From contig OY761614.1 of NCBI GenBank assembly GCA_963664825.1, positions 1,728,001-1,792,000 on the forward strand: DNA of 64,000 nt, read 5' to 3'. The DNA is from an uncultured Holophaga sp. (GTDB lineage Bacteria > Acidobacteriota > Holophagae > Holophagales > Holophagaceae). Shown piece by piece: positions 42,556-64,000 of this stretch; position 1 is the first letter of the stretch, and every line of letters begins with the position of its first letter. The notes below the pieces were generated by a model. That model was not told the DNA's origin and made no database searches. It worked only from the letters and a program-made list of their open reading frames with translations. Both the position numbers and the translations under genes were made by a program.

Positions 42556-43767
42556 ATGAGATTCCTGATCGTCCCCGAGAACAACTCGCTCTCCCATATT
42601 GGCAAGGCCTTGGCCCTGGAGTCTGCCCTCGGTGCCCAGGGCCACGAGGTCTTTGTGGCCGTGGGCGCCGAGCGAGCGCCCTTTGTGCGACACCTGGGCC
42701 CTCGTGGCCGCATCCTGCCGGATCTCCAGGAGCAGGATCACTCCGGTTATCTGACGGTGGAATGGTTCAGGCATCCGAGCCGCATCGTGGAATGCATCCA
42801 GGCCGAGCTGAGCCTCTTGAGGGAATTGCGGCCGGACCGGGTCCTGGGCGTCTTCCGGTTCACCCTGAAGGCCTCTGCGAGGCTGGCCGATGTCCCCTTC
42901 GATTCCCTCGCCTGCGGCTGCATGCTGCCCGAGACCCCAGAGGTGCTCGGATTTGCCGAAGGGTACCCGGGCCTGGCCCAGCAGCGGGAATACCTGAGGC
43001 TCTTCTACGGCTTCGCGGGAGCCCGGCTCAGCCGTGCCCTGGAATCCTTGGGCCTGGAGGGGATTCCCGATATCCGCGAGATGCTAAAAGGGGAGCGGAC
43101 CTTCCTCTGGGATTTCCCGGAATTTTCCATCCTGCCGGAGCTCCCGGGCGTGGTCCATGTGGGCCCGATCCCTTGGCATGGCTGGCCCCAGGAGGATCTG
43201 GACCTGGAGGCGATCCTGGGTGATTCCCGCCCCCTGGCCCTCCTCACCTTCGGCACCTGCGTGGGCAGTGGCGAGGCGGCCCTGCGATTGGCTCGGATCC
43301 TCCGCACCTTGGGGTACCGGGTGCTCTTGGCCGCGGGAGGCCAGGAGGGTCTGCTGGAGGCCGCCGCCCGGGAGCCGGGGCTCATCGCGTGCCGCTTCGC
43401 CCCCCTCCACCTCATCCTGCCCCATGCCGCGATCCTGGCCTGCCACGGGGGCCAGCTCACGGTCTTCGAGGCCCTCGCCTACCGAGTCCCGGTCCTGGTC
43501 CTGCCCTTCCAGGCCGAGCAGGCCCACAACGCAGTCTGCCTGGAGCGCATGGGCTGTGGCCGCCGCCTGGGGGGCCCTCGCTCCTTCCTGGGGGACCCTG
43601 GGGTTTACGTAAACGCCTTCAACGCCATGAGCGACCCGGATCTCCTGGGGATCCTTCGAGGCCTGACGGAGGATCCCCAGACGGCCGATAAACTGGTCGC
43701 CGCTCAGGAAATCCTGGACCGCTACCACGGGCTCGAGACCCTCACCTCCCAGCTGGTGGAGAGTTGA
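42556..43767 (+). CDS. GT-B glycosyltransferase (GT1/GT28-like)
   Basis: N-terminal SH..KALAL..AL...GHEV; C-terminal CHGGQLTVFEALAYRVPVLVLP..AEQ..NA. Confidence 0.85.
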   Translation: MRFLIVPENNSLSHIGKALALESALGAQGHEVFVAVGAERAPFVRHLGPRGRILPDLQEQDHSGYLTVEWFRHPSRIVECIQAELSLLRELRPDRVLGVFRFTLKASARLADVPFDSLACGCMLPETPEVLGFAEGYPGLAQQREYLRLFYGFAGARLSRALESLGLEGIPDIREMLKGERTFLWDFPEFSILPELPGVVHVGPIPWHGWPQEDLDLEAILGDSRPLALLTFGTCVGSGEAALRLARILRTLGYRVLLAAGGQEGLLEAAAREPGLIACRFAPLHLILPHAAILACHGGQLTVFEALAYRVPVLVLPFQAEQAHNAVCLERMGCGRRLGGPRSFLGDPGVYVNAFNAMSDPDLLGILRGLTEDPQTADKLVAAQEILDRYHGLETLTSQLVES

Positions 43768-45524
43768 ACGTGGCGCCGGGCATCCTCCTCATCCACGGGT
43801 ATACGGGTTCCGAGCATGATTTCGGTCCCCTGGTCGAAGACCTGGCAGGGGTCTGTCCCGGCGCGGAGATCGTTGCCCTCCCGCTGCCCGGCCATGGAGG
43901 CGCCGCACCCGCATTTGCCCAGGCGGCCTTTCTCGAGGCCATCGGCGAGGCCGCGGCCCATCTCCAGGCCGGGGGCCGCAAGCTCATCCTGGTGGGGCAT
44001 TCCACCGGGGGCAGCCTGGCCCTCGCCGCCATGGAACAGGGGCTCACTCCCTCATTGCTGGTGCTGGCCGCCGTGCCCAACCGCATCGATGGGAGCTACC
44101 TGGCCCACTGGAAGCAGCACGCCGAGGCCATGGGAAGAGGGGGCGGCATCACCTTCACATCCATGGCCCAGATGGTGGCTTTCATCAACAGGATCGGAGC
44201 CCAGCCTCGGGCCCATTGCCCCGTGCTGATCCTCCATGGCCTGGACGATGAGCTCGTGCCCCCTGCCGAGACCGAACTCTGGCGCGTACGGATGGCCCCA
44301 GGCCTAGTCCGCACCGTTTTCATTCCGGGGGCCGGACACCAGTTGTTCCAGGGGGCGGGCCAGGCCTTCGCCTGCGATGTGCTTTGCAGGGCGGTAGCAG
44401 ACGTGGCCTACGAGCTCTCGGAGGATGAGCGCAGCGCCTTGGCCCGGCTCGTGGCCGACGAACCGGAACTGGGGAAATTCATCTCCCTTTCTCCCACCTC
44501 GGCCCGCCATCTGCTGGGCTCACCCAGCGGCCAGGGTGGGGATGGCTGGCCACCCCTTGAACCCCTCGGGGAACCGGTCTTCGCCAATATCGAGATCACC
44601 ACCCGCTGCAATCTCCGCTGCGCTTTTTGCGCGCGCACCCAAGGGGCCAGGCCCGCCGTGGATATGTCCCTCGAGACGTTCAAGCGCATCCTGGATCTCC
44701 TGCCCCACGCCTACCGGATCACCCTGGTTGGCCTCGGCGAGCCGCTGCTGCACCCTGGGGTGGCCGAATGCGTGGCGATGGCAGCCGCGAAGGGCCGCCG
44801 CGTGTCCCTAGTCACCAATGCCCTGCTGCTGACCCCTGAACGCTCCCGTCGCCTCATCGAGGAAGGGCTGGATGGGATCACCTTCAGCCTGGATGCGCCC
44901 ACGGCCGAACTGGCCGCCCAGGTGCGAGCCGGGACAGTGCTTGATACAGCCCTGGCCAATATCCGAAGCTTCAATGCCATCGCGGAGGCCACGCGTCCCG
45001 TGGCCCGGGCCGTGTTCTCCGCCGTCTCTATGACCACGCTGCCTCTCCTAGAGGAGCTGGTGCGCACCGTCGCGGGGCTCGGAGTGGATGTGCTGATGCT
45101 CTCTGATCTCAATTTCAAGGCCAACCTCCCCCAGAGTCTATGGCGCAACCCCGGCGAGGAAGTTGCCTCCACGGTCCGGCAGGCCGTCCGTACGGCCTTC
45201 GCCCTCGGCCTTCCCGTGCTCTCCGTCCACGGACTGGAGGCCTTCGCGCTGCCCCGCCGCTACCAGCGGCATCTCCTGGTCCCCCCGGACCGGCTCTACA
45301 TGCGGTCCTCCTCATGCACACACTGCTTTTCTCCCTGGCAGACGCTTCCCGTGGCCGTGGATGGCAGGCTCACGCTCTGCGACTGCCAGCCGGACCGGGC
45401 CGTGGGGCAGCTTCTGGAACAGCCCTTCGGCGATCTGTGGCTGAGGGGGCCCCTCGCCGAACAGCGTCGACACATGCTTTCGGAGGCGCCGCCCGAGGCC
45501 TGTGCCATCTGTCCACGCTTCTGA
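43764..45524 (+). CDS. Alpha/beta-hydrolase fused to radical SAM domain with SPASM/twitch-like C-terminus
   Basis: HGYTG, GHSTGG, HGLDDELV, GAGH; then CNLRCAFC, GLGEPLLHP, VTNA; CFSPW...DGRLTLCDC...CAICP. Confidence 0.88.
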   Translation: MNVAPGILLIHGYTGSEHDFGPLVEDLAGVCPGAEIVALPLPGHGGAAPAFAQAAFLEAIGEAAAHLQAGGRKLILVGHSTGGSLALAAMEQGLTPSLLVLAAVPNRIDGSYLAHWKQHAEAMGRGGGITFTSMAQMVAFINRIGAQPRAHCPVLILHGLDDELVPPAETELWRVRMAPGLVRTVFIPGAGHQLFQGAGQAFACDVLCRAVADVAYELSEDERSALARLVADEPELGKFISLSPTSARHLLGSPSGQGGDGWPPLEPLGEPVFANIEITTRCNLRCAFCARTQGARPAVDMSLETFKRILDLLPHAYRITLVGLGEPLLHPGVAECVAMAAAKGRRVSLVTNALLLTPERSRRLIEEGLDGITFSLDAPTAELAAQVRAGTVLDTALANIRSFNAIAEATRPVARAVFSAVSMTTLPLLEELVRTVAGLGVDVLMLSDLNFKANLPQSLWRNPGEEVASTVRQAVRTAFALGLPVLSVHGLEAFALPRRYQRHLLVPPDRLYMRSSSCTHCFSPWQTLPVAVDGRLTLCDCQPDRAVGQLLEQPFGDLWLRGPLAEQRRHMLSEAPPEACAICPRF

Positions 45525-45582
45525 GTGGCCAGGGCTTGCGCGGGTCCGATATGATTTCCAGAGCCCCGGAGGAGAGCTGTTG

Positions 45583-46848
45583 ATGAAGATGACCCTGATT
45601 TACCCGAGTTGGCCGAAATTGGACCGACAGACGGAATTCTACCTGCCTCCTCATGGCCCCGTGTGCTTCGCCGCCACCGTTCCCCCCGAAGTGGATCTGA
45701 CCTTCGTCGACGAGAACCTCCAGACCATCGATTTCGATGCCTCCTGCGATCTGCTGGCCCTTTCGGTCATGCTCACCTGCCAGTTGCCTCGGGCCTTCGC
45801 CATCGCCCAGCTTTACAGGGAGAAGGGGATTCCGGTCATCTTCGGCGGCATCGCGACCATGCTCCATTCCGAGGAAGTGGCCCTTCACGCCGATGCGGTC
45901 TTCCTGGGGGAATCCGAGGGACGCTTTGCCGCGGTCCTGGAGGATTTCAAGGCTGGGCGCATGAAGAAGCTCTACGACTACATGGGCCAGCATCCGGACA
46001 TGAACCTCATCGGCACCGCCCGTCGGGAGATCCTCGACCGCAAACTCTACAATTACCGGGGCGTTCAGATGCTGGATCTGGTTCACGCCTCCCGGGGTTG
46101 CCGTTTCAATTGCTATCCCTGCTGCACGGGTTTCCTGGGGGGGAAGTCCTTCCGCCCCCGCCCCATCGACAAGGTCATCGCGGAGATGGAATCCATCCAG
46201 AACAACCGCATGTTCATCGTGGATAACTCCCTGGCCCAGGACAAACAGTGGCTGATCGATCTCTTCACTTCAATGGCGCCCCTCAAGAAGAAGTGGGTCT
46301 CCCACCCCATCATGGACGATGACAAGATCCTCAAGCTGGCGGCCGATGCCGGCGCCTGGTACGTCTATCAGGCCGTGTTTGACACTTCGGATGTGATCCG
46401 CAACCGCATCAAGCGCCTCAAGGACCACGGCATCGGCGTGGAGGGCACGATCCTCCTGGGCACCGATGAGCAGGACGAGGACTCCATCAAGCGCCTGGTG
46501 GACTTCCTGCTGGAAGTCGAACTGGATGTGGCCGAGTTCACCATCATGACCCCCTTCCCTCATTCTCCCTGCCGTACCGCCCTGGAGCAGGAGGGACGGC
46601 TCCTCAGCAGCAACTGGATCGACTACACCGCCGATAAGGTCGTCTTCCGGCCCAAGCAGATGACCCCCGACAAGCTCCAGGAGATGTACCACTACGCCTG
46701 GGACACCTTCTATGCCGATGGAGGACACCAGCTGAAGATGGGCAATCTCTTCAAGCGGGTGATCGAGCGCGAGATGGGGGACGGTACCTATTACCGCTAC
46801 AACCCTCGCAGGAGCCGGGAGTTCCAGAAGGTGCAGTCCGAACAGTGA
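45583..46848 (+). CDS. B12-binding radical SAM enzyme
   Basis: N-terminal cobalamin-binding-like domain (VIFGGIAT..GESEG); SRGCRFNCYPC; TPFPHS. Confidence 0.88.
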   Translation: MKMTLIYPSWPKLDRQTEFYLPPHGPVCFAATVPPEVDLTFVDENLQTIDFDASCDLLALSVMLTCQLPRAFAIAQLYREKGIPVIFGGIATMLHSEEVALHADAVFLGESEGRFAAVLEDFKAGRMKKLYDYMGQHPDMNLIGTARREILDRKLYNYRGVQMLDLVHASRGCRFNCYPCCTGFLGGKSFRPRPIDKVIAEMESIQNNRMFIVDNSLAQDKQWLIDLFTSMAPLKKKWVSHPIMDDDKILKLAADAGAWYVYQAVFDTSDVIRNRIKRLKDHGIGVEGTILLGTDEQDEDSIKRLVDFLLEVELDVAEFTIMTPFPHSPCRTALEQEGRLLSSNWIDYTADKVVFRPKQMTPDKLQEMYHYAWDTFYADGGHQLKMGNLFKRVIEREMGDGTYYRYNPRRSREFQKVQSEQ

Positions 46849-48197
46849 CCCGCATCCTGCTGGTCTCGTCCAATATCACGCGGGAACCCTTTCCGGTCTA
46901 TCCCCTGGGCCTGGCGGTCATCGCCTCTGCGCTGGCAGCCTGCGGCCACATCCTGGAACAGTTCGATTATCTCGTGGCGAAAGAGTCCGAGGAGGCTCTG
47001 CGCGCGCGAGTTCAGGCCTTCGCGCCGGATTACGTCTGCATCTCCCTCCGCAACCTGGATGACTGCGATTCCCTCACGGCCAGGGCCTATCCCGTCGTCG
47101 CCCAGCGGATGGTGGAGGTGATCCGGGAGACCAGCGCGGCCCCCGTGATCATCGGGGGGGCTGCCTTCTCCATCCTGCCCGAGGAGATCCTCGCCTTTAC
47201 CGGCGCCGATTATGGGGTGGTGGGTGAAGGCGAAAGAGTCGTCTGCGATCTGATCCGGGATCTCGAAAAAGGGATCCCAAGGCCCCGCATCTTGAGGGGC
47301 GAGACCCTCATTCCCGGCCAGGAACTGATCTCCCCCCTCTATTCCCGGGAGCTGATCGACTTCTACCTGGAACAGAGCGGGATGATCAACCTCCAGACCA
47401 AGCGGGGTTGCGCCCATGGCTGCATCTACTGCAGCTATCCCTCCCTGGAGGGCAGTCGCTATCGCTTCCGGGATCCTCGGGCCGTGGTCGATGACATGGA
47501 GCGGGCCGCCACGGAACACGGCGTGAATTCCTTCTTCTTCACCGATTCGGTCTTCAACGACGGCGAGGGGCACTACCTGCGGGTCGCCGAGGAGATGCTG
47601 CGGCGGGGGAAGCCCCTGCGTTGGTGCTGCTACATCCGCCCCGAAGGCCTCGGCCGACCGGAGATCGCTCTCCTCAAGCGGGCCGGGCTCTATGCCGCGG
47701 AACTGGGCACCGATGCGGCCTGCGACACGACCCTGCACACCTTGGGCAAGGGATTTACCTTCCGGGACGTCCTGGAGGTGAATGGGGCTTTCGTGGCAGA
47801 ACGGGTGCCCTGCGCCCATTTCGTCATGTTCGGCGGGCCAGGGGAGACCCCTGAGACCGTGGCGGAGGGCCTGGCCAATCTCGAGAAGCTCGAGCATACG
47901 GTGGTCTTCGCCTATACGGGCATCCGCATCCTGCCCGACACTCCCCTCCTGAATCTTGCGATCCGGGAGGGCTTCCTGGAGCCTGGAAGCTCTCTGCGGG
48001 AGCCCATCTTCTACCAGTCTCCCCTGATTCCAGGGGAGGCGATGAATGCCATGATCACCGAGGCCTTCAGGGGGCGGCGGGATCGAGTCTTCCCCCCGGA
48101 GGATTCCCAGACCAAGCGGACGGTCCTGCACCGTTTCGGATACCGCGGCCTGCTCTGGGACACGCTCATCCGGTTTCCCAAGGATTTGCCATGTTGA
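46845..48197 (+). CDS. B12-binding radical SAM enzyme, lipid-biosynthesis type
   Basis: EPFPVYPLGL, ISLRNLDD, IIGGAAFS..P, GEGE, QTKRGCAHGCIYCSY, FTDSVFN, FGGPGET. Confidence 0.9.
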   Translation: MTRILLVSSNITREPFPVYPLGLAVIASALAACGHILEQFDYLVAKESEEALRARVQAFAPDYVCISLRNLDDCDSLTARAYPVVAQRMVEVIRETSAAPVIIGGAAFSILPEEILAFTGADYGVVGEGERVVCDLIRDLEKGIPRPRILRGETLIPGQELISPLYSRELIDFYLEQSGMINLQTKRGCAHGCIYCSYPSLEGSRYRFRDPRAVVDDMERAATEHGVNSFFFTDSVFNDGEGHYLRVAEEMLRRGKPLRWCCYIRPEGLGRPEIALLKRAGLYAAELGTDAACDTTLHTLGKGFTFRDVLEVNGAFVAERVPCAHFVMFGGPGETPETVAEGLANLEKLEHTVVFAYTGIRILPDTPLLNLAIREGFLEPGSSLREPIFYQSPLIPGEAMNAMITEAFRGRRDRVFPPEDSQTKRTVLHRFGYRGLLWDTLIRFPKDLPC

Positions 48198-49639
48198 ACT
48201 CGAACAAGATCCTTTTCGTGCATCCCCTGGGATACAAGGCCTCCGCTGCCGGGAAGGACATCTCCCGGGTGGCCAATATCATGCCTCCCCTGGGGCTGGC
48301 GAGCATGGCGGCCTATCTCGAACAGCGCGCCCTGAGCTCCGAGATCATCGACTGCTACGCCCACCCCGATTCCGATCGCATCATCGTGGATCGCCTCCTG
48401 GCCGAGCAGCCCGCCTTCCTGGGGCTCAGCTGCACCACCTCCAGTTTCCTGGACGGCGTGCGCATCGCCGAGATCGCCCGCAAGACCCTGCCCGGCATCC
48501 AGACCGTCTTCGGGGGGCCCCATGTCTCGGCCCTGAAGGAAAAGCTCTTCCCGGACTACCCCGCCATGGACTATGCGGTGATCGGAGAGGGGGAGGAGAC
48601 CCTCGCCAATCTGATGCGCAACGGCGGCGAGGCCCCGGGAGAGGTCAAGGGGATCATCTACCGGGATGCCGGCGAGGCCCGCTTCACGGGCTACCCGGAC
48701 AAGGCCCTGGAACTCGATAGCCTGCCCTTCCCGGCCTACGAGAAGCTGGCGGGATTCCCCGATTCCTACATGCTGCCCATCTTCAATTACCCGAAGGTGC
48801 CCAACGCCAGCTGCATCTCCAGCCGGGGCTGTCCCTACGCCTGCAGCTACTGCGACCGTTCGGTCTTCCGCCGGAGCTTCCGCTTCAATTCCGCCGAATA
48901 CCTCTATGCCCATCTCAAGCACCTGCGGCAGAAGTTCGGCGTGCGGCACATCAATTTCTACGACGACCAGTTCACCTTCAACAAACAGCGGGTGGAGGAT
49001 TTCACCGACCTGATCCTCAAGGATCCCCTCGGGATGACCTTTAATTGCGCCGTGCGCGCCGAGCACATCGATGCCCCCCTCCTGAAGCGCATGAAGCGGG
49101 CGGGTTGCTGGATGATGAGCCTGGGCATCGAATCGGGGGACGAACAGCTCCTGGCCCAGCACCGCCAGAACGTGGATCTGGATCACCTAGCCCAGAAGAT
49201 CCGGATGATCAAGGCCGCGGGGATCCGCACCAAGGGACTGCTGATGATGGGGCTGCCGGGGGAGACCGAGGAAAGCATCCGCAGGAGCATGGCCTACGTG
49301 TTCTCCCTGCCCATCGACGATTTCAACCTGGCCAAGTTCACGCCCTTCCCGGGCTCTCCCATCTATGAAAACATCCACGAGCTGGGGGAATTCGAAGAGG
49401 ATTGGGAGAAGATGGACTGCATGCATTTCCAGTTCGTCACCAAGGGGATGACCCAGAAGCGCCTGGAGACCCTCTTCCAGGAATTCTATCGTTCCCATTT
49501 CCAGCGCCCGAAGGTCCTCTGGGGCTATGTGACCATGCTCTGGCGCTCCCCGGATAGCTGGTTGCGCTTCCTGAAGAGCCTCACCAGCTTCCTGCGCTAT
49601 ATCCACGTCAACCGGCGCCTCATGGATGAGGAAAGCTAG
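48191..49639 (+). CDS. B12-binding radical SAM enzyme (class B methyltransferase-like)
   Basis: PPLGLASMAAYL, GGPHVS, GEGEET, SRGCPYACSYC, FYDDQF, GIESG, GLPGET, TPFPGS. Confidence 0.92.
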   Translation: MLNSNKILFVHPLGYKASAAGKDISRVANIMPPLGLASMAAYLEQRALSSEIIDCYAHPDSDRIIVDRLLAEQPAFLGLSCTTSSFLDGVRIAEIARKTLPGIQTVFGGPHVSALKEKLFPDYPAMDYAVIGEGEETLANLMRNGGEAPGEVKGIIYRDAGEARFTGYPDKALELDSLPFPAYEKLAGFPDSYMLPIFNYPKVPNASCISSRGCPYACSYCDRSVFRRSFRFNSAEYLYAHLKHLRQKFGVRHINFYDDQFTFNKQRVEDFTDLILKDPLGMTFNCAVRAEHIDAPLLKRMKRAGCWMMSLGIESGDEQLLAQHRQNVDLDHLAQKIRMIKAAGIRTKGLLMMGLPGETEESIRRSMAYVFSLPIDDFNLAKFTPFPGSPIYENIHELGEFEEDWEKMDCMHFQFVTKGMTQKRLETLFQEFYRSHFQRPKVLWGYVTMLWRSPDSWLRFLKSLTSFLRYIHVNRRLMDEES

Positions 49640-50664: not shown

Positions 50665-50839
50665 CGACACCCCCCTCTTCGGGGAGAGCCTGGGGCTCGA
50701 TTCCCTGGATGCGGTGGAGCTAGTGATCGTGATCAAGAAGCATTTCGGCATCGAGATCGCCGATATGGAGGAGAGCAAGACCGCCTTCTCCTCGATCAAT
50801 GCCCTGGCCGCCTATATCGATAGCCACCTGCCTGCATGA
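50585..50839 (+). CDS. Acyl carrier protein
   Basis: LGLDSLDAVEL phosphopantetheine site; GGAG upstream of ATG 50585. Confidence 0.93.
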   Translation: MDTKAKLKKILAEEMNLPVLIQENYDDDTPLFGESLGLDSLDAVELVIVIKKHFGIEIADMEESKTAFSSINALAAYIDSHLPA

Positions 50840-53096: not shown

Positions 53097-53187
53097 CACT
53101 CCCCAGCGCCAATGCGATAGCAAATGGAAATGCTTGATCGGCTGGTTGTCTTTGCGTACCGCTGATGAATCGATGAGGAACCCGAAC

Positions 53188-55275: not shown

Positions 55276-55737
55276 ATGAATCACCTTGCACGCCTTGTCT
55301 TGCTCCCAGTTCTCTGCGGCTCCGTCAGCCTCATGGCCGCGCCGAAGAAGCTCTCCAACGCCGCGCTCAGCGGGGATCTCACCCAGGTCAAGGCCCAGTT
55401 CCAGGCCACTCCCGAGGAGATCAACCAGATCGACAAGTGGGGCTGGACGCCCCTCATGTGGGCGACCCTGAGGCAGTACGTCCCCATCGTGAAATACCTC
55501 CTGGAAAACGGCGCCGATCCCAATCTCGCGGCCCAGAAGGCCGATGTGGTCATCAAGGCTGGTGCCACGCCGCTCATCATCTGCGGCTACTACGGCACGC
55601 CGGAGATCGCCAAGCTGCTCCTGGCCGCCAAGGCCGATCCCTCCAAGGAGGACAACGCCGGGGAGACGGCCCTGAGCTACGCGAAGCGGTACGAGTTCAA
55701 GGAGATGGTGGAACTCCTCTCCAAGGCCGCCAAGTAG
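55276..55737 (+). CDS. Secreted ankyrin-repeat protein
   Basis: Signal peptide; GWTPLMWA, LLENGADPN, GATPLII, GETALSYA. Confidence 0.88.
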   Translation: MNHLARLVLLPVLCGSVSLMAAPKKLSNAALSGDLTQVKAQFQATPEEINQIDKWGWTPLMWATLRQYVPIVKYLLENGADPNLAAQKADVVIKAGATPLIICGYYGTPEIAKLLLAAKADPSKEDNAGETALSYAKRYEFKEMVELLSKAAK

Positions 55738-55880: not shown

Positions 55881-57053
55881 TCATCCCTGTGTTTTTGAGG
55901 GGCTGTTTCGCAGTGTCTTGATGAGGCCATAGGTCAGCAGGGCCCCCAGGCCGCCCAGGATGGGGCCGACGATGAACGAGCCCAGGAGCCACTCCCAGAG
56001 CCTCAGGTGGATCTCGTTCACCAGGGCGTGGCGTGTGAAGGTGGTCCACCATCTGCCGTGGAGCAGGAGGTGGCCCACTTCGATGCAGAGGAAGGGCACG
56101 AAGGGGACGACGCAGACGTTGCTGGCCCCGACTCCGGCGAGCTTGTTGAGGTGGAGCCGGTGGCAGACGTAGAGAATTGTGGCGATGCCGAAGGGGATGA
56201 TGGGCAGGGAGCCGATGAAGATCCCCACCCAGGCGGCGGCGGCCAGATCCTTGGGGCTCGTATGCTCCAGGCTCAACTGGCGCAGGAAGCCGATGGGATG
56301 CAGGAGGCTGGAGGGCCTTGGATCTCGGGGCGGTTTGGGAAAGAGGCGGCGATGGGGCCAGGGGAGGAGGGAGCGCGTCACCAGGTAGGTGTGAAGGACG
56401 CTGAGGCGCAGATTGTCCCTGAATTTGCGGAAATGGGAGATCCTCTGGGCCCCGGGGGCGTAATAGACACTGACTGGCGTGGAGATGACCGGTAGCCCAG
56501 CCCAGGCTCCCCGCACCAGCACCTCGATTTCGAAGGTGTAGCGCCGGGAGAGGAAGCCCCCCAGGGTGAGTAGGGCCGTGGGATAGAGGCGGTATCCGCT
56601 CTGGGTATCGGGCAGGGCTTTCCCGCATTCCAGGCGGACCCAGAAATTGGAAAAGGCCATGCCGAAGCGGCTGGAGGAGGGCACGTTCAGGGCCTCCATC
56701 TGCCGCGCCCCCAGGGCGATGGCGGGCCAGAAGGGAAGGGCTGCCTCCAGGAGCCGTCGGGCATCGGCCGGATCGTGCTGGCCATCGGCGTCCAGGGTGA
56801 GGATGGCCTCGAAGCCAAGGTCTGCCGCGATGGCCGCCCCGGCCTGGATGGCCGCTCCCTTGCCCCGGTTTCGGGGAAGCCTGTGGCGGGCGATGGGCAG
56901 GTCGGCCACGGCCTCCAGACTGCCGTCGCTGCTGCCGTCATCGACCACTAGGACCGGATAACCCTCCCGCAGGCAGGCCTCCACCACGCCGCGAAGGGTG
57001 GCAGCGTGGTTGTAGACGGGGATGAGGAGGAGTGTCTTCAGCGGCGCGGGCAT
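55881..57053 (-). CDS. GT2 glycosyltransferase fused to DUF2062-like membrane domain
   Basis: IPVYN, VVDDGSSD, NRGKG, DADGQH, DTQSGYRLY; C-terminal TM region beginning SPKDLA. Confidence 0.88.
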   Translation of the reverse strand: MPAPLKTLLLIPVYNHAATLRGVVEACLREGYPVLVVDDGSSDGSLEAVADLPIARHRLPRNRGKGAAIQAGAAIAADLGFEAILTLDADGQHDPADARRLLEAALPFWPAIALGARQMEALNVPSSSRFGMAFSNFWVRLECGKALPDTQSGYRLYPTALLTLGGFLSRRYTFEIEVLVRGAWAGLPVISTPVSVYYAPGAQRISHFRKFRDNLRLSVLHTYLVTRSLLPWPHRRLFPKPPRDPRPSSLLHPIGFLRQLSLEHTSPKDLAAAAWVGIFIGSLPIIPFGIATILYVCHRLHLNKLAGVGASNVCVVPFVPFLCIEVGHLLLHGRWWTTFTRHALVNEIHLRLWEWLLGSFIVGPILGGLGALLTYGLIKTLRNSPSKTQG

Positions 57054-57058
57054 CAGGG

Positions 57059-58513
57059 TCAGTGTGGATCAGGCCTGCGGGCCACCACTTCCAGCAGCAT
57101 GCCTCCGGAGATCACGCATCTGAGGAGGTGGGGGCGGATGGAGACGGGCTCCAATCCGGCTCCCAGGAGCATGTTCCGCATCTGGCGCCGACTATGGGAC
57201 TTCAGCCAGATCCCCTGGCGCATGGCGTTCCCGATCTGGGTGAAGACCCGGAAGAGGCAGGTCCGGGCCGTGATGAAATAGATCGTGCCGCCGGGGCGGA
57301 CCTGGGGGGCGAGGCGCCGCAGGAAGGCCGGGAGATCGGTGAGGTACTCCAGGGCCGAGAAGGCGCAGACCACGTCGAAGGGGCCCTCCAGATCCATGGT
57401 TTCCACATTGCCGACGCGGCACCGCACATTGGTGATGCCCTCGGCCCTGCATTTCTGGTCCAGGATGGCCAGCATATTGCCGGAGATATCCAGGGCTTCC
57501 ACCTCTTCGCAGTGCTTGGCCAGGGTGGTGGTGAAGATGCCCGTGCCTGCGCCGATCTCCAGGACCCGATGGGCCCCTTGGAAGCATTCGGGCAGCCGCC
57601 TCGTGAAGAGCTCCAGCTCCGTGCGCCTGGAGATGGAGACCTTGGAGCAGAATTGCTCCTGATCGTAGGTGGCCGCCAGCCCATCGTAGAAGAGTGCGGC
57701 CGCATTGGCGCCGGAAGCCGAATCCACGGTCTGCATGACCTCCTTGCCGATGATCTGGGCCAGGGGCTGGACCTGGAGGCCCTTGACCCTCAGCTCCACT
57801 AGGACGGCTTCGACCTGTCCCAGGAGTTCCTCCACCTCGCCCTTCAGGGGGGCCACCTCATGGAGCAGGAGGATGCTGCCGGGGCGCACGTTCCGAAGCA
57901 CACGCTGGGCTAGGTTCCGGATGCGCCTATTGCCCATGTCCCCGGCCCGGCAATCGAAATTGACGCAGAACATGCCGAGCTTCAGGAGCACGGGCCAGAG
58001 GTGGGGGCTGGTGATGCCCACGGGTGGGCGAAAGGCCAGGGGGACCACGCCGAACTGGCGGAAGAGGGCCTGGCCCGATTCCACTTCCCGCAGGAGGGTG
58101 CGCTTCCCCTTCAGCATCAGGAAGGGGGAATGGTGGTACGAGTGGTTGCCGAGGGTGTGACCCCCCTGGAGGATGGCTTCGATGAGTTCGGGGTGCCGTT
58201 GCGCATTCACGCCCGTGACAAAGAAGGTGGCCTTCACCGAATAGCGGGCCAGGAGCTCCAGGAGCCGGAGGGTCACAGCCGGGTCGGGGCCATCGTCGAA
58301 GGTGAGGGCCACGGATTTTTCATTCTTCCGGCCCCGGCTGATCACGGGCAGGTAGTAGCTGCACCGGGGGAATACCGGGGCGATGGCGCAGATGAGGACG
58401 AAGAGAAGGAGGGGCAAGGGCGCCAGGGCCGGGATAAAAATCAGGAAAAGCGCGTAAAGCTGAAAGGCGCTCAGCGCGAAGAAATGGGCTGGCGACAGGG
58501 GGCAAATCATCAA
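57059..58513 (-). CDS. Polysaccharide deacetylase (NodB) fused to class I SAM methyltransferase
   Basis: N-terminal TM; TFDDGP, HSYHH, FRPPVG, ILLLHE; then VLEIGAGTG, LDISGNML. Confidence 0.87.
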   Translation of the reverse strand: MMICPLSPAHFFALSAFQLYALFLIFIPALAPLPLLLFVLICAIAPVFPRCSYYLPVISRGRKNEKSVALTFDDGPDPAVTLRLLELLARYSVKATFFVTGVNAQRHPELIEAILQGGHTLGNHSYHHSPFLMLKGKRTLLREVESGQALFRQFGVVPLAFRPPVGITSPHLWPVLLKLGMFCVNFDCRAGDMGNRRIRNLAQRVLRNVRPGSILLLHEVAPLKGEVEELLGQVEAVLVELRVKGLQVQPLAQIIGKEVMQTVDSASGANAAALFYDGLAATYDQEQFCSKVSISRRTELELFTRRLPECFQGAHRVLEIGAGTGIFTTTLAKHCEEVEALDISGNMLAILDQKCRAEGITNVRCRVGNVETMDLEGPFDVVCAFSALEYLTDLPAFLRRLAPQVRPGGTIYFITARTCLFRVFTQIGNAMRQGIWLKSHSRRQMRNMLLGAGLEPVSIRPHLLRCVISGGMLLEVVARRPDPH

Positions 58514-58683: not shown

Positions 58684-59463
58684 ATGTCTATTGGCGACAG
58701 GATCAGGCTGGCTGGGAAGATCCTGGTGAGCGGAGTCCTGTTCTCGATCCTGGGCATCGGGGGCATGCTCCTCTCGGTGCTCATCATCCCCTTCCTGAAG
58801 CTGGCTCCGGGCGGTCTGGGGGCCCGGCACCGCCGTGGGCGGTGGATGATGCATGTCTGCTTCAAGGCCTTCGTCTGGGCCCTGGAGGGGAGCGGCATCC
58901 TGCGCCTCGAAGTGGAAGGCCTTTCCCAGGATCTTGCCGGCAAGCTGCTCCTGCCCAACCATCCCGGATACCTCGATATCGTCCTGATCCTCTCGGTGCT
59001 GGGAGAGGCGGCCTGCGTGGTCAAGGGGCCCGTCTATGACAGCCCCTTCTTCGGCCTCCTGGTCCGGGAGGCGGGCCATGTGCCCAACCGCGACCCCGAG
59101 GGGGTCATCGAAGCCGGGGCGGAGGCCCTGAGCCAGGGCAATAGCCTCATTGTATTCCCCGAAGGGACCCGCACCCGCCCGGGCAGTCCCCTCAAGTTCC
59201 AGCGGGGCGCGGCCCATATCGCCCTGCGCAGCCATGCGCCCATCGTTCCCTTGATCGTGACCTGCAATCCCAGGCTGCTGGAGAAGGGGGCGAAATGGTA
59301 TGATATGCCGCTGCGGACTTGCCGATACCGCGTGTGTATCCAGGCCCCGCTGGCTCTTGATCTACCGGGGATCGACGATCTCCCCCCGCATCAGGCGGCT
59401 CGTCTCTTGACCCGGGAACTGGAGCGCTACTTCCACAAGGAAATCCATGAGTCTGGCCGTTGA
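58684..59463 (+). CDS. PlsC-like acyltransferase
   Basis: NHPGYLD, VFPEGTR, FQRGAA. Confidence 0.9.
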   Translation: MSIGDRIRLAGKILVSGVLFSILGIGGMLLSVLIIPFLKLAPGGLGARHRRGRWMMHVCFKAFVWALEGSGILRLEVEGLSQDLAGKLLLPNHPGYLDIVLILSVLGEAACVVKGPVYDSPFFGLLVREAGHVPNRDPEGVIEAGAEALSQGNSLIVFPEGTRTRPGSPLKFQRGAAHIALRSHAPIVPLIVTCNPRLLEKGAKWYDMPLRTCRYRVCIQAPLALDLPGIDDLPPHQAARLLTRELERYFHKEIHESGR

Positions 59464-59749
59464 TCCCCATGAGATGAAGCAGTTCATCATTGATGTCTTA
59501 GCCTTGGAGGATATGCGTCCCGAGGATATCGGCGATGACGAGCCCCTTTTTCGGGAGGGTCTGGGCCTGGATTCCATCGATGGCCTGGAACTGAGCGTGG
59601 CCCTGAGGAAGCGATTCCACATCGAGTTCACGGATGAGAAACCTGGCACCTGGAACCACCTGGCCACGGTCCGTTCCCTGGTGGCCTTCCTCTCGAGCCA
59701 AGGCTCAACCTCCCCTGCTGTCCCCACGGAGATTCCTTCATGCTCATGA
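59447..59749 (+). CDS. Acyl carrier protein
   Basis: GLGLDSIDGLEL. Confidence 0.9.
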   Translation: MSLAVDPHEMKQFIIDVLALEDMRPEDIGDDEPLFREGLGLDSIDGLELSVALRKRFHIEFTDEKPGTWNHLATVRSLVAFLSSQGSTSPAVPTEIPSCS

Positions 59750-59994
59750 CTCAAGACGAAATTTTCATCAAACTTCAAGAGGTGCTCGTCGCATCCTTCC
59801 AGTTGGATCCCGCCCAGATCACCCGGGAAGCCAATCTCTTCACGGATCTGGATCTCGATAGCATCGATGCCGTGGAACTGGCGATTCAGCTTCAGGACAT
59901 CACGGGCCGCAGGGTCAAGGCCGAGGAGTTCAAGGGGGTCCGCACCGTTCAGGATGTGGTGGACGCCGTCCACTTGATGCTGCAGGAGCATTGA
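59740..59994 (+). CDS. Acyl carrier protein
   Basis: DLDLDSIDAVEL. Confidence 0.92.
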   Translation: MLMTQDEIFIKLQEVLVASFQLDPAQITREANLFTDLDLDSIDAVELAIQLQDITGRRVKAEEFKGVRTVQDVVDAVHLMLQEH

Positions 59995-60012
59995 GGCCTC
60001 AAGGGACTGAAC

Positions 60013-61371
60013 GTGGAATTGATTGAGCTTTCACGGATTTTCGACGGCCGACGGGCCCTGGAGCATCCTGTCGCCATCCTCGAGGGCCGGGTAATTCCCT
60101 TCGATAGGTTCGCCCGCAGGGTCGCAGCGGTGGCCGCCCAAGCCCGAGCCCAGACTACGGCCCAGGGCGGAGGACACTGGCTGCTGGCCTCGGAGGATGC
60201 CTGGGGTTTCCTGGTGGGCTTTTTCGGCCTGCTGCGGGCCGGGTGCAGCATCGCCATTCCTCCCAATCACCTGCCCGCCACCCTGGAACGGCTATCGGCC
60301 GATGTGGATGGCGTCTTCACGGATGTAGCCCCATGCCTGGGGGCGGGTCCCCTCTGGCATCCCATCCCCGAGGCCGGGGAGGCATTCCCGGATCCGGCTC
60401 CCCTGGCCGATGGGCTCGTGGATTTCTGGACCTCCGGGAGTTCGGGGGAAGCCAAGCGCATCCGCAAGCGCCTCTCTCAACTCAATGCGGAAGCCGTGGT
60501 GCTGGAAGAGACCTTTGGAGACCGCTTCCAGGGCGGGCCTGTGCTGGGCACCGTTCCCCATCAGCACATCTACGGCTGTCTCATCCGGATCCTGTGGCCC
60601 CTGGCGGCCGGACGGCCCATCGTCACCGAACAGTGCGGGGATCCCGACCGCTTCTGCGCGGCCCTCGAACGCTCCCTGGCGCCGGCCCTGGTGTGCAGCC
60701 CGGCCCTTCTGGCGCGCCTGCCCGATCTGGTGGACCTGGATCGCTTCAGTTCCCTGCCCTCGGTGATCTTCTCCTCCGGCGGCCCCTTGAAGACCGCTGA
60801 TGCCCTGGCCTGGCGGCGCTGGGTTCCCAGGGGGGTGGTGGAGATCTACGGCAGCACGGAGACCGGTGGCATCGCCTGGCGTGTGCAGTCTACGGATCCT
60901 TCCTCGGCCTCCTGGATTCCCTTTTCCGATGTCTCCTTCACCTTCGAGGCCGATGGGGCCCTGGTGGTGCGCTCCCCCCGGGTGGGGCCGGAACCCATCC
61001 GCATGGAGGATGCGGCCCAGCCTCTGCCCGATGGGCGCTTCCGCCTGATGGGGCGCCTGGACCGCATCGTCAAACTGGAGGAGAAGCGCGTCTCCCTGCC
61101 CGAGCTGGAGGCGGCCCTGGAAGCCCATCCATGGGTGGAAAGCGCCGCGGTGGTGCGGCTGGAAACCCCTCGGGTGATGCTGGGCGCCGCCATCGTGTTA
61201 GCCAAGGAGGCCCCAGGTCTGGAAAGGCGGGAGCTGGGGCTCATCCTTCGGCGCCATCTGGCCCTTTCCTTTGAGCCCATGGCGATCCCCAAGCGCTGGC
61301 GGTGGGTGGCCGAACTCCCCTACAACGAAAGAGGCAAGCTGACGCCTCAGGCCCTGGCCACCCTTTTCTGA
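60013..61371 (+). CDS. AMP-dependent acyl-ACP/CoA ligase (aryl-polyene cluster type)
   Basis: TSGSSGEAK, TVPHQHIYG, SSGGPL, EIYGSTETGG, GRLDRIVKLEEKR. Confidence 0.88.
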   Translation: MELIELSRIFDGRRALEHPVAILEGRVIPFDRFARRVAAVAAQARAQTTAQGGGHWLLASEDAWGFLVGFFGLLRAGCSIAIPPNHLPATLERLSADVDGVFTDVAPCLGAGPLWHPIPEAGEAFPDPAPLADGLVDFWTSGSSGEAKRIRKRLSQLNAEAVVLEETFGDRFQGGPVLGTVPHQHIYGCLIRILWPLAAGRPIVTEQCGDPDRFCAALERSLAPALVCSPALLARLPDLVDLDRFSSLPSVIFSSGGPLKTADALAWRRWVPRGVVEIYGSTETGGIAWRVQSTDPSSASWIPFSDVSFTFEADGALVVRSPRVGPEPIRMEDAAQPLPDGRFRLMGRLDRIVKLEEKRVSLPELEAALEAHPWVESAAVVRLETPRVMLGAAIVLAKEAPGLERRELGLILRRHLALSFEPMAIPKRWRWVAELPYNERGKLTPQALATLF

Positions 61372-61770
61372 GTGAGGAGCGCCTGCGATATGACCGCGTT
61401 GCCGAAGGTGGTGGGCCGGGAATCCGGTGTGGAAGAGCTGTTCGTCCTGGAGCTCGCTCTGGATGAGCCCGCCTTCCAGGGGCACTTCCCGGGCAACCCC
61501 ATCCTGCCCGGAGTCATCCAGGTGGATTGGGCCATCCGCCTGGGGACGGAAGCCTTCGGCCCCCTGGGGGATTTCCGAGGAATGGCGAACCTGAAATTCA
61601 TGGACCTGATCCGTCCGGGGGAGGTCCTTGAACTCGGTCTGACCCTGGATCGGGACCAAGGGGTGCTCGGGTTCCGCTACCAGTGCGGGGAACGTCGCAA
61701 ATCCGCAGGGCGGATCCTCTTTGGCCCGAGGGCTGTGCTGCCAAAATGCAATCAAGTTCAGGAGAAGTGA
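61372..61770 (+). CDS. FabA/FabZ-like hot-dog dehydratase
   Basis: FQGHFPGNPILPGVIQ...LKF..I.PG. Confidence 0.85.
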   Translation: MRSACDMTALPKVVGRESGVEELFVLELALDEPAFQGHFPGNPILPGVIQVDWAIRLGTEAFGPLGDFRGMANLKFMDLIRPGEVLELGLTLDRDQGVLGFRYQCGERRKSAGRILFGPRAVLPKCNQVQEK

Positions 61771-61772
61771 TC

Positions 61773-63356
61773 ATGCCCCGTACAATCGCGCCCACGAAAG
61801 AGTCCCCCCTCGACCCGCTGCAGATCGGGGCGGGGCGAATCCAGATCGAGGATGTGATCGAGGTGGCCCGGAGGGGGCGCTCCGTCGAACTCTCCCGGGA
61901 TCCCGCCTTCCGCGCCCGGGTGGAGGCCAGTGCCGCCTTCCTCAACGAACTCCTGGCGGGGGGCGGGGAGGTCTATGGCGTCAATACTGGCTACGGGGAT
62001 AACTGCACGGTGACCATCCCGCCGGAGCTGGTGGCGGAGCTGCCCACCCATCTCACCCGCTACCACGGGTGCGGGATGGGCGCCTTCCTGGAAGATTCCC
62101 AGGTCCTGGCAGTCCTGGTGGCCCGGCTCAATTCCCTGGGCCAGGGCTATTCCGCAGTCCGCCCCGTGATCCTCCAGGCCCTGGTGGACCTGATCAATCA
62201 CCGCATCCTGCCCCGGATCCCTTCGGAAGGTTCCGTGGGCGCCAGCGGGGATCTCACGCCCCTCTCCTACATCGGCGCGGCCCTCATCGGGGAGCGCGAG
62301 GTCACCTGTGGGGGCGAAGGGCTGCCCGCCGCCCAGGCCCTGGCCCAGGCGGGACTCGAGCCGGTGGTGCTGGCCCCTAAAGAAGGCCTCGCCATCATGA
62401 ACGGCACCGCCGTGATGACGGGCCTGGCCTGCCTGGCCTTCGACCGGGCGGAATACCTGGGACGGCTCTGCTGCCGCCTGACGGCCTTGGCCGGGGCCAG
62501 TCTCCAGAGCAACCGGGACCACTTCCATCCCCGGCTCTTCGAATTGAAGCCCCACCTGGGGCAGGCGGAGGCCGCGGGCTGGATCTACGAGGACCTGGGC
62601 GGTGCCGGCCAATCCGAGGATCCCGTCCGCCTCCAGGACCGCTATTCCATCCGCTGCGCCCCCCATATCATCGGCGTGCTCCGGGACGCCCTCCCCTGGA
62701 TCCGCCGGGATCTGGAAAACGAGCTCAATAGCGCCAACGACAACCCGCTCTTCGACGGCGAGAGGCGCCTGCTCCTGCATGGGGGCCACTTCTACGGCGG
62801 CCACGTGGCCTTCGCCATGGATGGCCTGAAGACCGCCGTGGCCAATCTGGCCGATCTCATGGATCGCCAACTGGCCCTGCTGGTGGATGTGCGCTACAAC
62901 AACGGGCTGCCCCAGAACCTCTCGGGGGCCAAGGGGCCCCGGGCCGCCATCAATCATGGCCTGAAGGCCGTCCAGATCGGCTCCAGCGCCTGGACCGCCG
63001 AGGCCCTCAAACTGACCATGCCGGCCTCGGTCTTCTCCCGCTCCACCGAATGCCACAACCAGGACAAGGTGAGCATGGGCACCATCGCGGCTCGGGATTG
63101 CCTGCGGGTGCTCGAACTCACCGAGCAGGTGGCGGCGGCCCTGCTGCTGGCCGTGGTCCAAGGCCTGGCCCTGCGCCAGCGGGAAGGGGGCCCCGTGGGC
63201 GCCTACGCGATGGAGCGCCTGTCCCTGGAGGCCAGGGCCTTCTTCGAGGAACTGGGGAGGACGCTCCCCTTCCTGGAAGAGGATCTGGCGCTGGATTCCA
63301 TCCTCCGGGATCTGGTGGCCGGCACCCAGGAACAGCGCTGGAGCCTCTACCGATGA
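61773..63356 (+). CDS. MIO-dependent aromatic amino acid ammonia-lyase (HAL/PAL/TAL family)
   Basis: VYGVNTGYG, GSVGASGDL (ASG at 62241-62249), KEGLAIMNGT, QDRYSIRCAP, NDNP, HNQDKVSMG. Confidence 0.95.
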   Translation: MPRTIAPTKESPLDPLQIGAGRIQIEDVIEVARRGRSVELSRDPAFRARVEASAAFLNELLAGGGEVYGVNTGYGDNCTVTIPPELVAELPTHLTRYHGCGMGAFLEDSQVLAVLVARLNSLGQGYSAVRPVILQALVDLINHRILPRIPSEGSVGASGDLTPLSYIGAALIGEREVTCGGEGLPAAQALAQAGLEPVVLAPKEGLAIMNGTAVMTGLACLAFDRAEYLGRLCCRLTALAGASLQSNRDHFHPRLFELKPHLGQAEAAGWIYEDLGGAGQSEDPVRLQDRYSIRCAPHIIGVLRDALPWIRRDLENELNSANDNPLFDGERRLLLHGGHFYGGHVAFAMDGLKTAVANLADLMDRQLALLVDVRYNNGLPQNLSGAKGPRAAINHGLKAVQIGSSAWTAEALKLTMPASVFSRSTECHNQDKVSMGTIAARDCLRVLELTEQVAAALLLAVVQGLALRQREGGPVGAYAMERLSLEARAFFEELGRTLPFLEEDLALDSILRDLVAGTQEQRWSLYR

Positions 63357-63766
63357 CGCCGTCTCTGAGCGAAGAGGTCATCATCGAGGTGCCCTTCCAC
63401 GATGTGGATGCCATGGGAGTGGCTTGGCACGGCCACTACGTCAAGTACATCGAGATCGCCCGCACGGCCATGATGCGCAAGATCGGCCTGGACTACCCAC
63501 AGCTGAAGGATTCGGGCTACATCTGGCCTGTGGTGGAGTGCCACCTGAAATACATCCGCCCCCTCTTCTACGGTATGAAGGTGCGCGTGAAGGCCACGCT
63601 GGTGGAGTGCGAGAGCCGGGTGAAGGTCGACTACCTCATGACGGACGCCCTTACGGGTGAGCGCCTCAACAAGGCCTGGACCGTGCAGCTGGCCGTGAAG
63701 GCCGATACGGGTGAACTGGCCTTCGAACTGCCCCCTTCCGTGCTCGCCGCCATCCCGAGGTCCTGA
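63353..63766 (+). CDS. Acyl-CoA thioesterase (4HBT/YbgC hot-dog family)
   Basis: VPFHDVDAMGVAWHGHYVKYIEIAR. Confidence 0.9.
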   Translation: MTPSLSEEVIIEVPFHDVDAMGVAWHGHYVKYIEIARTAMMRKIGLDYPQLKDSGYIWPVVECHLKYIRPLFYGMKVRVKATLVECESRVKVDYLMTDALTGERLNKAWTVQLAVKADTGELAFELPPSVLAAIPRS

Positions 63767-63768
63767 TC

Positions 63769-64000
63769 ATGCCCAAGCGATTCCTCTCATTCTTGTTCCT
63801 GGCCGCCTGCGCCCTGCAGGTCCAGCGGGCGGAGGCCACCCTTCCGGAGGCGCTGACCGCCCACCTGAAGAACACGCCCCTGCTGCACGTGGAATTCACC
63901 CAGACGCGTCACCTGGCGGCCCTCTCCAGGCCCCTGAAGACCACCGGCCGCATGGTGCTCTCCAAGGACCATGGCGTCATCTGGCAGGTGCGCAAGCCTC
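63769..64000 (+). CDS. LolA-like carrier protein, N-terminal part; truncated by window edge
   Basis: Manual translation: signal peptide then EFTQTRHLAALSRPLKTTGRMVLSKDHGVIWQVRKP; expected position after the thioesterase. Confidence 0.75.
   Translation, partial: MPKRFLSFLFLAACALQVQRAEATLPEALTAHLKNTPLLHVEFTQTRHLAALSRPLKTTGRMVLSKDHGVIWQVRKP

Follow-up and report, generated by a model that had tools for sequence, protein, structure and literature searches.

Gene clusters that combine genes for fatty-acid synthesis of type II (FASII) with radical S-adenosylmethionine (SAM) genes were described as 'ladderane-type' by Rattray in 2009 in Kuenenia, Desulfotalea, Geobacter and Pelobacter (PMC2649909, excerpt; 'excerpt' marks sources represented here by part of their text). 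The product of the TIGR04072 'ladderane-type' clusters has been a question since then. Desulfotalea carries a comparable cluster, and ladderanes were not detected in it (PMC2649909, excerpt); heterologous tests of the anammox genes failed, with several proteins insoluble or undetected (PMC4790861, excerpt). Here we describe a cluster of this type in 64,000 nucleotides of DNA from an uncultured Holophaga sp. (assembly GCA_963664825.1, contig OY761614.1, positions 1,728,001 to 1,792,000 of the forward strand; hereafter the window), in which a TIGR04072 cassette (the left half) is joined to an operon of the aryl polyene (ape) type (the right half).

The ape cluster is a second described relative. 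Its product, APEL, is a glycerol-phosphate-GalNAc lipid carrying an aryl polyene; ApeD attaches a conjugated acyl chain, the proposed role of ApeJ is the addition of first the sugar and then the aryl polyene, the ring is methylated by ApeB, and ApeM, ApeL and ApeN act in export (bioRxiv 10.1101/2020.12.19.423268). A third is anammox Cluster I, whose heterodimer of a ketosynthase (KS) and a chain-length factor (CLF) initiated from malonate in vitro (bioRxiv 10.64898/2026.05.19.726425, excerpt).

The cluster in the window is real and intact, and it is a variant of a known cluster type that is itself neither rare nor new. What is new here is a pattern of gene swaps within the family Holophagaceae and a TsrM-type arginine in the TIGR04072 protein. 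We consider it probable that both halves form one pathway, and the product is likely a methylated polyene glycolipid, to date not isolated. The odds lean slightly towards an APEL-type aryl glycolipid, and the reading as a whole, one pathway to an exported APEL-type glycolipid with the cassette filling the missing ape steps, has somewhat better than an even chance.

Composition of the locus compared with described clusters

The cluster of ~28 kb runs with its genes intact from 42556 to 70964 in window numbering, past the end of the window (Table 1). Open reading frame (ORF) calls and Pfam/NCBIfam scans recovered every gene that an earlier reading of the letters (the sequence-only reading) had named, with the places, strands and families agreeing. 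That reading described 42556-64000 as a hybrid and was correct in its genes, leaving out two ankyrin genes (53134-55179 and 55276-55737) between the halves. Its expectation that the operon continues off-window was borne out by MMPL, DUF3261, ApeP, FabG2, ApeR-like KS and FabB-like KS genes to 70964. A motif check found CxxxCxxC intact in the four radical-SAM proteins, as were KS1 Cys/His/His, the serines of three acyl carrier proteins (ACPs), the ASG of the 4-methylideneimidazole-5-one (MIO) ammonia-lyase, the deacetylase Asp-His-His motifs and PlsC HxxxxD/FPEG; no frameshift or lost catalytic residue was found in the expected-active enzymes. CLF1, which had been called a KS-like CLF, lacks the catalytic Cys and both His.

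The junction of the halves is not an assembly chimera, because a 32-kb contig from a public run, which may be the source sample, crosses 42001-62000 as a single piece with 0 differences. A contig from a second public run covers 42001-53799. The G+C fraction is 0.65 in the cluster, 0.64 in the genome and 0.59 in the ankyrin pair. Adjacent genes in 42556-53096 mostly overlap by a few bases, and the two halves belong to separate transcription units, the deacetylase-methyltransferase gene being parted from PlsC by a divergent gap.

The TIGR04072 model was covered at positions 1-443. A search with this protein gave 1472 matches at E<=1e-80 among 8000 candidates scored, and a genome scan found at least 591 related stretches; what is said here of loci in distant relatives rests on the 80 loci returned. 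Those listed came from Geobacteraceae, Desulfuromonadaceae, Desulfovibrionaceae, Nitrospirota, Lentisphaerae, Planctomycetota and others, with the recurrent order rSAM_A, TIGR04072, rSAM_C, (GT2-DUF2062), LpxL, ACP, KS, CLF (rSAM, radical SAM; GT, glycosyltransferase). The Geobacteraceae and Desulfuromonadaceae records share the order from rSAM_A to CLF at 53-83% identity. Forty-eight loci were at least 15 kb long and not titled as Holophagaceae; 37 of them had at least two ape-type genes within 10 kb of the match, one had one and ten had none. In this cluster type radical-SAM genes and ape/flexirubin-type genes are therefore usually found joined. The left half, which the sequence-only reading had described as a four-radical-SAM glycolipid cassette, is not a new one; it is the widespread TIGR04072 'ladderane-type' module (PMC2649909, excerpt). 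Nor are the four radical-SAM genes a fixed unit, with one to four per locus in relatives.

Recent transfer from Geobacteraceae was suggested by ~70-83% identity in the rSAM and KS genes and by two quick trees that placed the genus of the window with Geobacteraceae-type records. This was not supported: the likelihood rose (+13.2, p-AU 0.77) when the 12 KS1 sequences of the family were constrained to a single clade, and for that reason no donor or direction is claimed.

With the Rattray-type clusters the locus shares TIGR04072 membership, FASII genes with an inactive FabF paralog (an inactive KS paralog), radical-SAM genes, a deacetylase, a glycosyltransferase and an MMPL-type protein. It differs from them in that the ORFs tiling 42556-70964 include no phytoene-dehydrogenase-like oxidoreductase and no phenylacetate-CoA ligase, the ligase being ApeH-type. 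The second KS/CLF pair and export block that lie upstream in deltaproteobacterial clusters are replaced here by an E. coli-type ape operon. The family scan showed neither a ketoreductase nor a dehydratase within the cassette itself. A literature search, with most subscription journals outside its coverage, found no published product or reaction for TIGR04072 clusters and no publication on this cluster in Holophagaceae; in agreement with the sequence-only reading, no match to the cluster as a whole was found among characterised pathways.

Flexirubin (flx/dar) clusters share the ammonia-lyase, deacetylase, GT2, LpxL-type acyltransferase, LolA and MMPL gene types. The FlxA and FlxB models scored 313 against a cut-off of 700 and 242 against 340, so the genes here are not equivalogs. 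No member of the KAS III/DarB-like or DarA dialkylresorcinol families was found among the cluster proteins, to which the darAB search was confined.

The right half was compared, protein by protein, with the annotated ape cluster of E. coli 042. Twelve proteins matched in E. coli gene order (ApeD, E, F, H, I, K, L, M, N, P, Q and R; 25-59% identity), which upholds the resemblance to aryl polyene clusters proposed earlier. Among the ape core genes, ApeR, two ACPs (ApeE/F), the dehydratases ApeI/P, the reductase ApeQ and the transporter ApeM were present; KS2 was 59% identical to E. coli ApeR, lay in the ApeR clade and scored above the PRK09116 cut-off. With E. coli queries, ApeA, ApeB, ApeC and ApeG had no match in the genome, and ApeO and ApeJ had distant matches only. 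Same-genus queries also failed to find ApeO and ApeC orthologs in the genome; for ApeO there was none at E<=1e-55, the best match being KS1 (33-38%), of another clade. Each of the two ApeJ domains has its match in a different, distant gene (GT2-DUF2062 and LpxL1), and CLF1 is a same-family analogue of ApeC (PF13723), not an ortholog. Because ApeO and ApeC, which are on the published core list (bioRxiv 10.1101/2020.12.19.423268), are missing, the right half is not a full ape/APEL member, yet it is built on the same chassis.

Compared with the ape/APEL clusters of Xenorhabdus doucetiae and E. coli (bioRxiv 10.1101/2020.12.19.423268; PMC8253772, excerpt), the locus thus shares twelve Ape homologs and is without ApeO, ApeC, ApeJ, ApeB, ApeG and ApeA orthologs. 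An ammonia-lyase occupies the ApeJ position, and there are in addition a FabB-like KS, a deacetylase-methyltransferase, separate GT2 and LpxL genes, a third ACP, KS1:CLF1 and four radical-SAM genes. At its substrate-selectivity pair (aligned to RsTAL residues 89-90) this ammonia-lyase carries Tyr-His, where the other ammonia-lyase of the genome and those of distant clusters have Ser-His; judged by these residues, it is likely not a histidase. The literature consulted, including PMC8154213 (excerpt), does not fix its substrate.

Linkage and complementary distribution of genes among Holophagaceae

The main sample comprised 80 family genomes of at least 90% completeness. TIGR04072 was over its cut-off in 10 and an ApeR-like KS was found in 25, with all 10 among the 25; in an overlapping sample TIGR04072 was found in 9 of 61 genomes, all among the 13 with ApeR at 70% or more. 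In 8 of the 10 cassette genomes the TIGR04072 gene and the ApeR-like KS gene lay within 22 kb on one contig. Gene order was shuffled between genera and linkage was kept. In five genomes of one genus (G016, G108, G109, G110 and G112 in our numbering) the ape operon itself contains ACP1-KS1-CLF1, placed between FabG and ApeR. The sequence-only reading had proposed that its hybrid would fall if the halves were never linked in relatives and were independently expressed; they are linked there, and complementary.

Losses were counted in 31 ApeR-bearing family genomes from both samples (14 cassette-positive and 17 negative, six of the 31 less than 90% complete), and the counts are descriptive, since the 17 negatives belong mostly to two genera (10 and 3) and so represent few independent events. 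ApeO was found in 8 of 14 cassette-positive and 17 of 17 negative genomes, ApeC in 7 of 14 and 17 of 17 (one partial), and the ApeJ-type acyltransferase (E<=1e-39) in 3 of 14 and 16 of 17. LpxL1 showed the opposite distribution (13/14 versus 1/17). ApeO and ApeC were both missing in six cassette-positive genomes (G000, G004, G016, G108, G109 and G110), each with KS1:CLF1, and in none of the negatives. Because the six fall in two genera, there were at least two losses of ApeO/ApeC. Four of the six, the genome of the window included, are single contigs of 97-100% completeness. The ammonia-lyase and ligase were retained in five of the six ApeO-less loci.

One pathway is likely because loss of ApeO/ApeC was seen only with the cassette and LpxL1 largely excludes the ApeJ acyltransferase. 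The family holds a natural swap experiment, a plain ape operon versus an ape operon with the cassette and with ApeO/ApeC/ApeJ lost; it gives candidate gene roles and a predicted scaffold, and turns the question of the product into one of comparative lipidomics.

Three simpler rules were considered and rejected. ApeJ is not always fused in plain operons (fused in seven of nine, two genes in the other two), it is not always absent where the cassette is present (3 of 14 exceptions), and rSAM_A does not need TIGR04072, since genome G025 has an rSAM_A homolog at the head of an ape locus without TIGR04072 over the cut-off. This homolog (56%, L028:16751-18013) heads an ape locus with ApeB and ApeG. 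The nine plain loci mapped had the order ApeC-D-E-F-I-J-K-O-P-Q-R. Nine cassette-free relatives (L019-L020, L126, L128-L134) have a minimal ape operon, with ligase, LolA, MMPL and DUF3261 homologs not detected at the locus.

In the 13 cassette loci mapped, several of which stop at contig ends, TIGR04072 was present in all 13 and rSAM_C in 10; the GT-B gene with the hydrolase-rSAM gene occurred as a pair in seven, and rSAM_A in five, which all belong to the genus of the window. G112 has its ape genes at two complementary loci that duplicate almost nothing of each other (L123-L124 and L135): one has the radical-SAM cassette, the other ApeC, ApeE, ligase, ApeJ, ammonia-lyase, LolA, DUF3261 and ApeO.

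Proposed pathway and alternative readings

What the ape operon lacks, namely the chain-extending pair, the sugar acyltransferase and the C-methylase, likely comes from the cassette. The candidate replacements are KS1:CLF1 for ApeO:ApeC, GT2-DUF2062 plus LpxL1 for ApeJ, and the TsrM-like enzyme for ApeB.

In a FastTree phylogeny of 162 sequences, KS2 fell in the ApeR clade and KS1 in a clade separate from ApeO. The best PDB matches of KS1 were 9s5h_B (215 bits), 6kxd (169) and 6qsp (143), the last of which we take to be ApeO. Positions of Cys, His and Thr in 9s5h_B fit the published anammox numbering once shifted by 5, and in 9s5h_C the Cys site is occupied by Val; on these residue positions and the partner Val, 9s5h appears to be the anammox KS/CLF heterodimer. 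The sequence of 6kxd is also that of 6kxe, the ishigamide KS (bioRxiv 10.64898/2026.05.19.726425, excerpt). With anammox Cluster I of the same source the cassette shares an active KS beside a dead KS, an ACP and a B12 radical-SAM gene. It differs in that the similarity is moderate (215 bits), CLF1 is of the ApeC family and C-terminally degenerate, and the cassette has no FabZ or phytoene dehydrogenase.

Three B12-binding radical-SAM proteins had been proposed in the left half. By their domains only two of the four radical-SAM proteins are clearly cobalamin-type, those at 46845-48197 and 48191-49639, which passed both Pfam cut-offs; the protein at 45583-46848 (rSAM_A) missed both. Its CxxxCxxC was kept in 47 of 47 homolog matches. 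For the TIGR04072 protein, TsrM was the best solved relative both by sequence (E 4e-31, 23-24% identity) and by fold (model pLDDT 88, TM 0.84-0.85, next 0.71). Its next NCBIfam matches, BzaD (187) and the TsrM-family TIGR04428 (142, cut-off 500), were both under cut-off. TsrM is a cobalamin-dependent tryptophan C2-methyltransferase (PDB 6WTE) in which Arg69, on the lower cobalamin face, primes methyl-cobalamin for nucleophilic attack and Glu273 ligates the unique iron of the cluster and blocks radical formation (PMC8992657, excerpt). Arg69 of the TIGR04072 protein aligns with Arg69 of TsrM and was kept in 89 of 89 matches, a set that includes some loci taken twice and the gene itself. We give even odds that this enzyme is a C-methylase; as to the reaction, C-methylation at an sp2 carbon, more than ring closure, is most likely because a TsrM-like protein is present and ApeB is absent.

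The PDB matches of rSAM_C were AprD4 and TokK, with BchE/HpnJ-like models below cut-off. For the twitch-domain radical-SAM protein (43764..45524) the best match was BlsE, followed by DesII and, weakly, BtrN, all of which we take to be sugar-acting enzymes. Its gene adjoins the GT-B gene wherever the latter was seen. From these matches and this adjacency, the likely role of the pair is to attach a sugar and modify it. A B12 supply is plausible in this genome, which has three cobalamin riboswitches and, nearby, a periplasmic binding protein.

By analogy to the APEL route (bioRxiv 10.1101/2020.12.19.423268), the ammonia-lyase would make (hydroxy)cinnamate, which the ApeH ligase would load on an ACP. 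The chain would be extended by ApeR/KS3 and the KS1:CLF1 pair with FabG2 and ApeI/ApeP; a polyene is expected because family scans found no enoyl reductase in the cluster, and no phytoene-dehydrogenase-like gene was found either. The TIGR04072 enzyme would take the part of ApeB and methylate an sp2 carbon, either in the ring or in the chain, with rSAM_C and rSAM_A making optional further changes. ApeD would put a second chain on a lyso-phospholipid, GT2-DUF2062 would add an amino sugar whose amine the deacetylase frees, and LpxL1 would move the ACP1-bound chain onto the sugar. The GT-B and twitch-rSAM pair could then add and alter a further sugar before ApeM/L/N export the lipid. An envelope glycolipid with radical tailoring, as the sequence-only reading had suggested, remains the best reading; of the tailoring it listed, C-methylation has evidence in its favour, and there is little evidence for cyclisation or cross-linking.

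Several observations weigh against this pathway. The halves are far apart in G002 (cassette in the middle of a 502-kb contig) and on separate contigs in G003. Replacement is not obligatory, because ApeO persists in 8 of the 14 cassette-positive genomes, and the ApeJ-type acyltransferase is retained in G009, G109 and G112 despite the cassette; G112 has ApeO, ApeC and ApeJ at a second locus alongside it, and the cassette may be additive instead. KS1 is not in the ApeO clade. The ammonia-lyase is absent from G020 and G098, and its aromatic substrate in the window is a prediction. TsrM Glu273 aligns with Val236 of the TIGR04072 protein, and the position is V/I/L in 87 of 89 matches, so the TsrM mechanism would not carry over unchanged; the family may combine a TsrM-like cobalamin pocket with a continued ability to form radicals. 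The class-I methyltransferase of the cluster could substitute for ApeB. RNA coverage consists of only a few fragments from a metagenome.

It is unlikely that the halves make two products, with the cassette borrowing FabG2 and the dehydratases to build a separate, radical-modified acyl chain for transfer by LpxL1 to lipid A or another glycolipid, and the ape half a conjugated-acyl glycerolipid only. LpxL1 does belong to the lipid A acyltransferase family, and the separate transcription units with their divergent gap, the unlinked halves in G002 and the presence of ApeO/ApeC/ApeJ plus the cassette in G112 all suit such a division. It fits poorly with the cassette genes interleaved within ape operons, with the ApeJ-type acyltransferase not being found in 11 of 14 cassette-positive genomes, and with GT2-DUF2062, which adjoins LpxL1 in most distant loci listed but stays with the ape half in G002. 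A single pathway to a non-aromatic, methyl-branched or partly reduced acyl chain instead of a pigment, with the ammonia-lyase and ligase left over or serving a minor product, is rather unlikely as well. Here the intact ammonia-lyase, ligase and ACP2, kept in five of six ApeO-less loci, and the absence of an enoyl reductase and a phytoene-dehydrogenase-like gene from the cluster stand against two points in its favour: the nearest solved relative of KS1 is 9s5h_B, ahead of 6kxd and 6qsp, in keeping with the malonate-initiating anammox heterodimer, and only 8 of 52 distant loci listed have an ammonia-lyase within 10 kb, all of the Ser-His type.

Ring closure in the polyene by the radical enzymes (cyclobutane/ladderane-like or cyclopropane), or cross-linking of chains by them, we judge improbable. 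TIGR04072 was named for candidate ladderane clusters, the best PDB match of KS1 appears to be an anammox enzyme, and BchE-like and OxsB matches were obtained; BchE and OxsB are ring-forming enzymes. However, the sole invariant radical-SAM protein resembles a methylase, the anammox phytoene-dehydrogenase-like gene is absent here, ladderanes were not detected in Desulfotalea with its similar cluster (PMC2649909, excerpt), and the anammox genes failed heterologously, with the reservation on solubility and detection given above (PMC4790861, excerpt). A long shot is the combined case in which an anammox-related KS1:CLF1 makes a polyene that B12 radical-SAM enzymes ring-close, for export on an APEL-type glycolipid outside anammox bacteria; if true, it would offer a simpler model for ladderane-type chemistry and show the role of the anammox enzymes. 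Decay of the ape operon, with an unrelated cassette inserted alongside, would account for the six missing ape genes and for the lower-GC ankyrin genes that interrupt the region. It is very improbable: frameshifts or lost catalytic residues were not found in the motif check, the same ApeO/ApeC loss occurs in a second genus and only with the cassette, and ApeR is present in 10 of 10 cassette-positive genomes.

Gene inventory and neighbouring features

Table 1. Genes of the cluster in window numbering; genes marked off-window lie beyond position 64000.
Feature	Position	Strand	Evidence
GT-B (GT1-like) glycosyltransferase	42556..43767	+	PF04101 over cut-off; PDB matches YjiC/CalG1/OleI, E 5e-7 to 8e-6
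Alpha/beta-hydrolase fused to radical-SAM, C-terminal twitch/SPASM, no B12 domain	43764..45524	+	PF00561, PF04055, PF13186; GHSTG, CxxxCxxC
rSAM_A, divergent class-B-like radical-SAM	45583..46848	+	PF02310 26.4 < 32.1; PF04055 20 < 29.5
TIGR04072 'lipid biosynthesis B12-binding/radical SAM protein'	46845..48197	+	651.3 bits vs cut-off 360; TsrM-like fold
rSAM_C, B12-binding radical-SAM, BchE/HpnJ-like	48191..49639	+	PF02310, PF04055 over cut-off; under every equivalog cut-off
LpxL1, LpxL-family acyltransferase	49639..50664	+	PF03279; 26% to acyltransferase domain of E. coli ApeJ
ACP1	50585..50839	+	PF00550; overlaps final 80 nt of LpxL1
KS1, active ketosynthase	50836..52011	+	Cys153/His285/His318; clade apart from ApeO
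CLF1, chain-length factor	52008..53096	+	ApeC-family domain PF13723; Asp at catalytic Cys position
Ankyrin-repeat protein, predicted signal peptide	53134..55179	+	start probably 53173 or 53188
Small ankyrin-repeat protein, predicted signal peptide	55276..55737	+	
GT2 glycosyltransferase-DUF2062 fusion	55881..57053	-	35% to GT domain of ApeJ
Membrane-anchored polysaccharide deacetylase fused to class-I SAM methyltransferase	57059..58513	-	PF01522 + PF13649; metal motifs intact
PlsC-like acyltransferase = ApeD	58684..59463	+	33-35%
ACP2 = ApeE	59447..59749	+	40%
ACP3 = ApeF	59740..59994	+	50%; NF003757 over cut-off
AMP-ligase = ApeH	60013..61371	+	35%
Dehydratase = ApeI	61372..61770	+	PF22818
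MIO aromatic ammonia-lyase, at the place of ApeJ in E. coli order	61773..63356	+	PF00221; Tyr-His selectivity pair
Thioesterase = ApeK	63353..63766	+	44%
LolA-like ApeL	63769..64383 (window ends at 64000)	+	
MMPL/ApeM	64387-66702, off-window		
DUF3261/ApeN	66699-67247, off-window		
ApeP	67244-67771, off-window		
FabG2/ApeQ	67768-68514, off-window		
ApeR-like KS2	68511-69740, off-window		NF006587 (PRK09116) 679 vs 470
FabB-like KS3	69747-70964, off-window		

The ankyrin genes (53134-55737) may be an accessory envelope part of the cluster. Small ankyrin homologs adjoin GT2-DUF2062 in five relatives (G004, G016, G020, G108 and G110), and in locus L038 an ankyrin homolog comes after CLF1. The FabB-like KS follows ApeR only in G000 and G004, the two same-genus genomes without ApeO/ApeC.

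Within the window no Rfam match was found, and promoter and terminator scans were at chance level (5 versus 3.1 and 6 versus 11.7). A single RNA run contained 0.08 of the sampled words, with eight short pieces over both halves; it is not evidence of expression. A perfect palindrome, TTGAC-N5-GTCAA, lies at 58602-58616 in the divergent gap between the deacetylase-methyltransferase and PlsC genes and is a possible regulator site. It has two copies in the genome, and the exact pattern was absent from the relatives' loci scanned.

Just upstream of the GT-B gene is a small stand-alone ORF with a DnaJ zinc-finger (CXXCXGXG; 42070-42489, + strand; PF00684 44.7 bits versus 32.7). Beyond the cluster, off-window at ~73600-77200 on the minus strand, genes were found for a TusE/DsrE-like small protein, a membrane protein, an Fe-S heterodisulfide-reductase-like protein and a cysteine desulfurase-like protein, as judged from their sequences.

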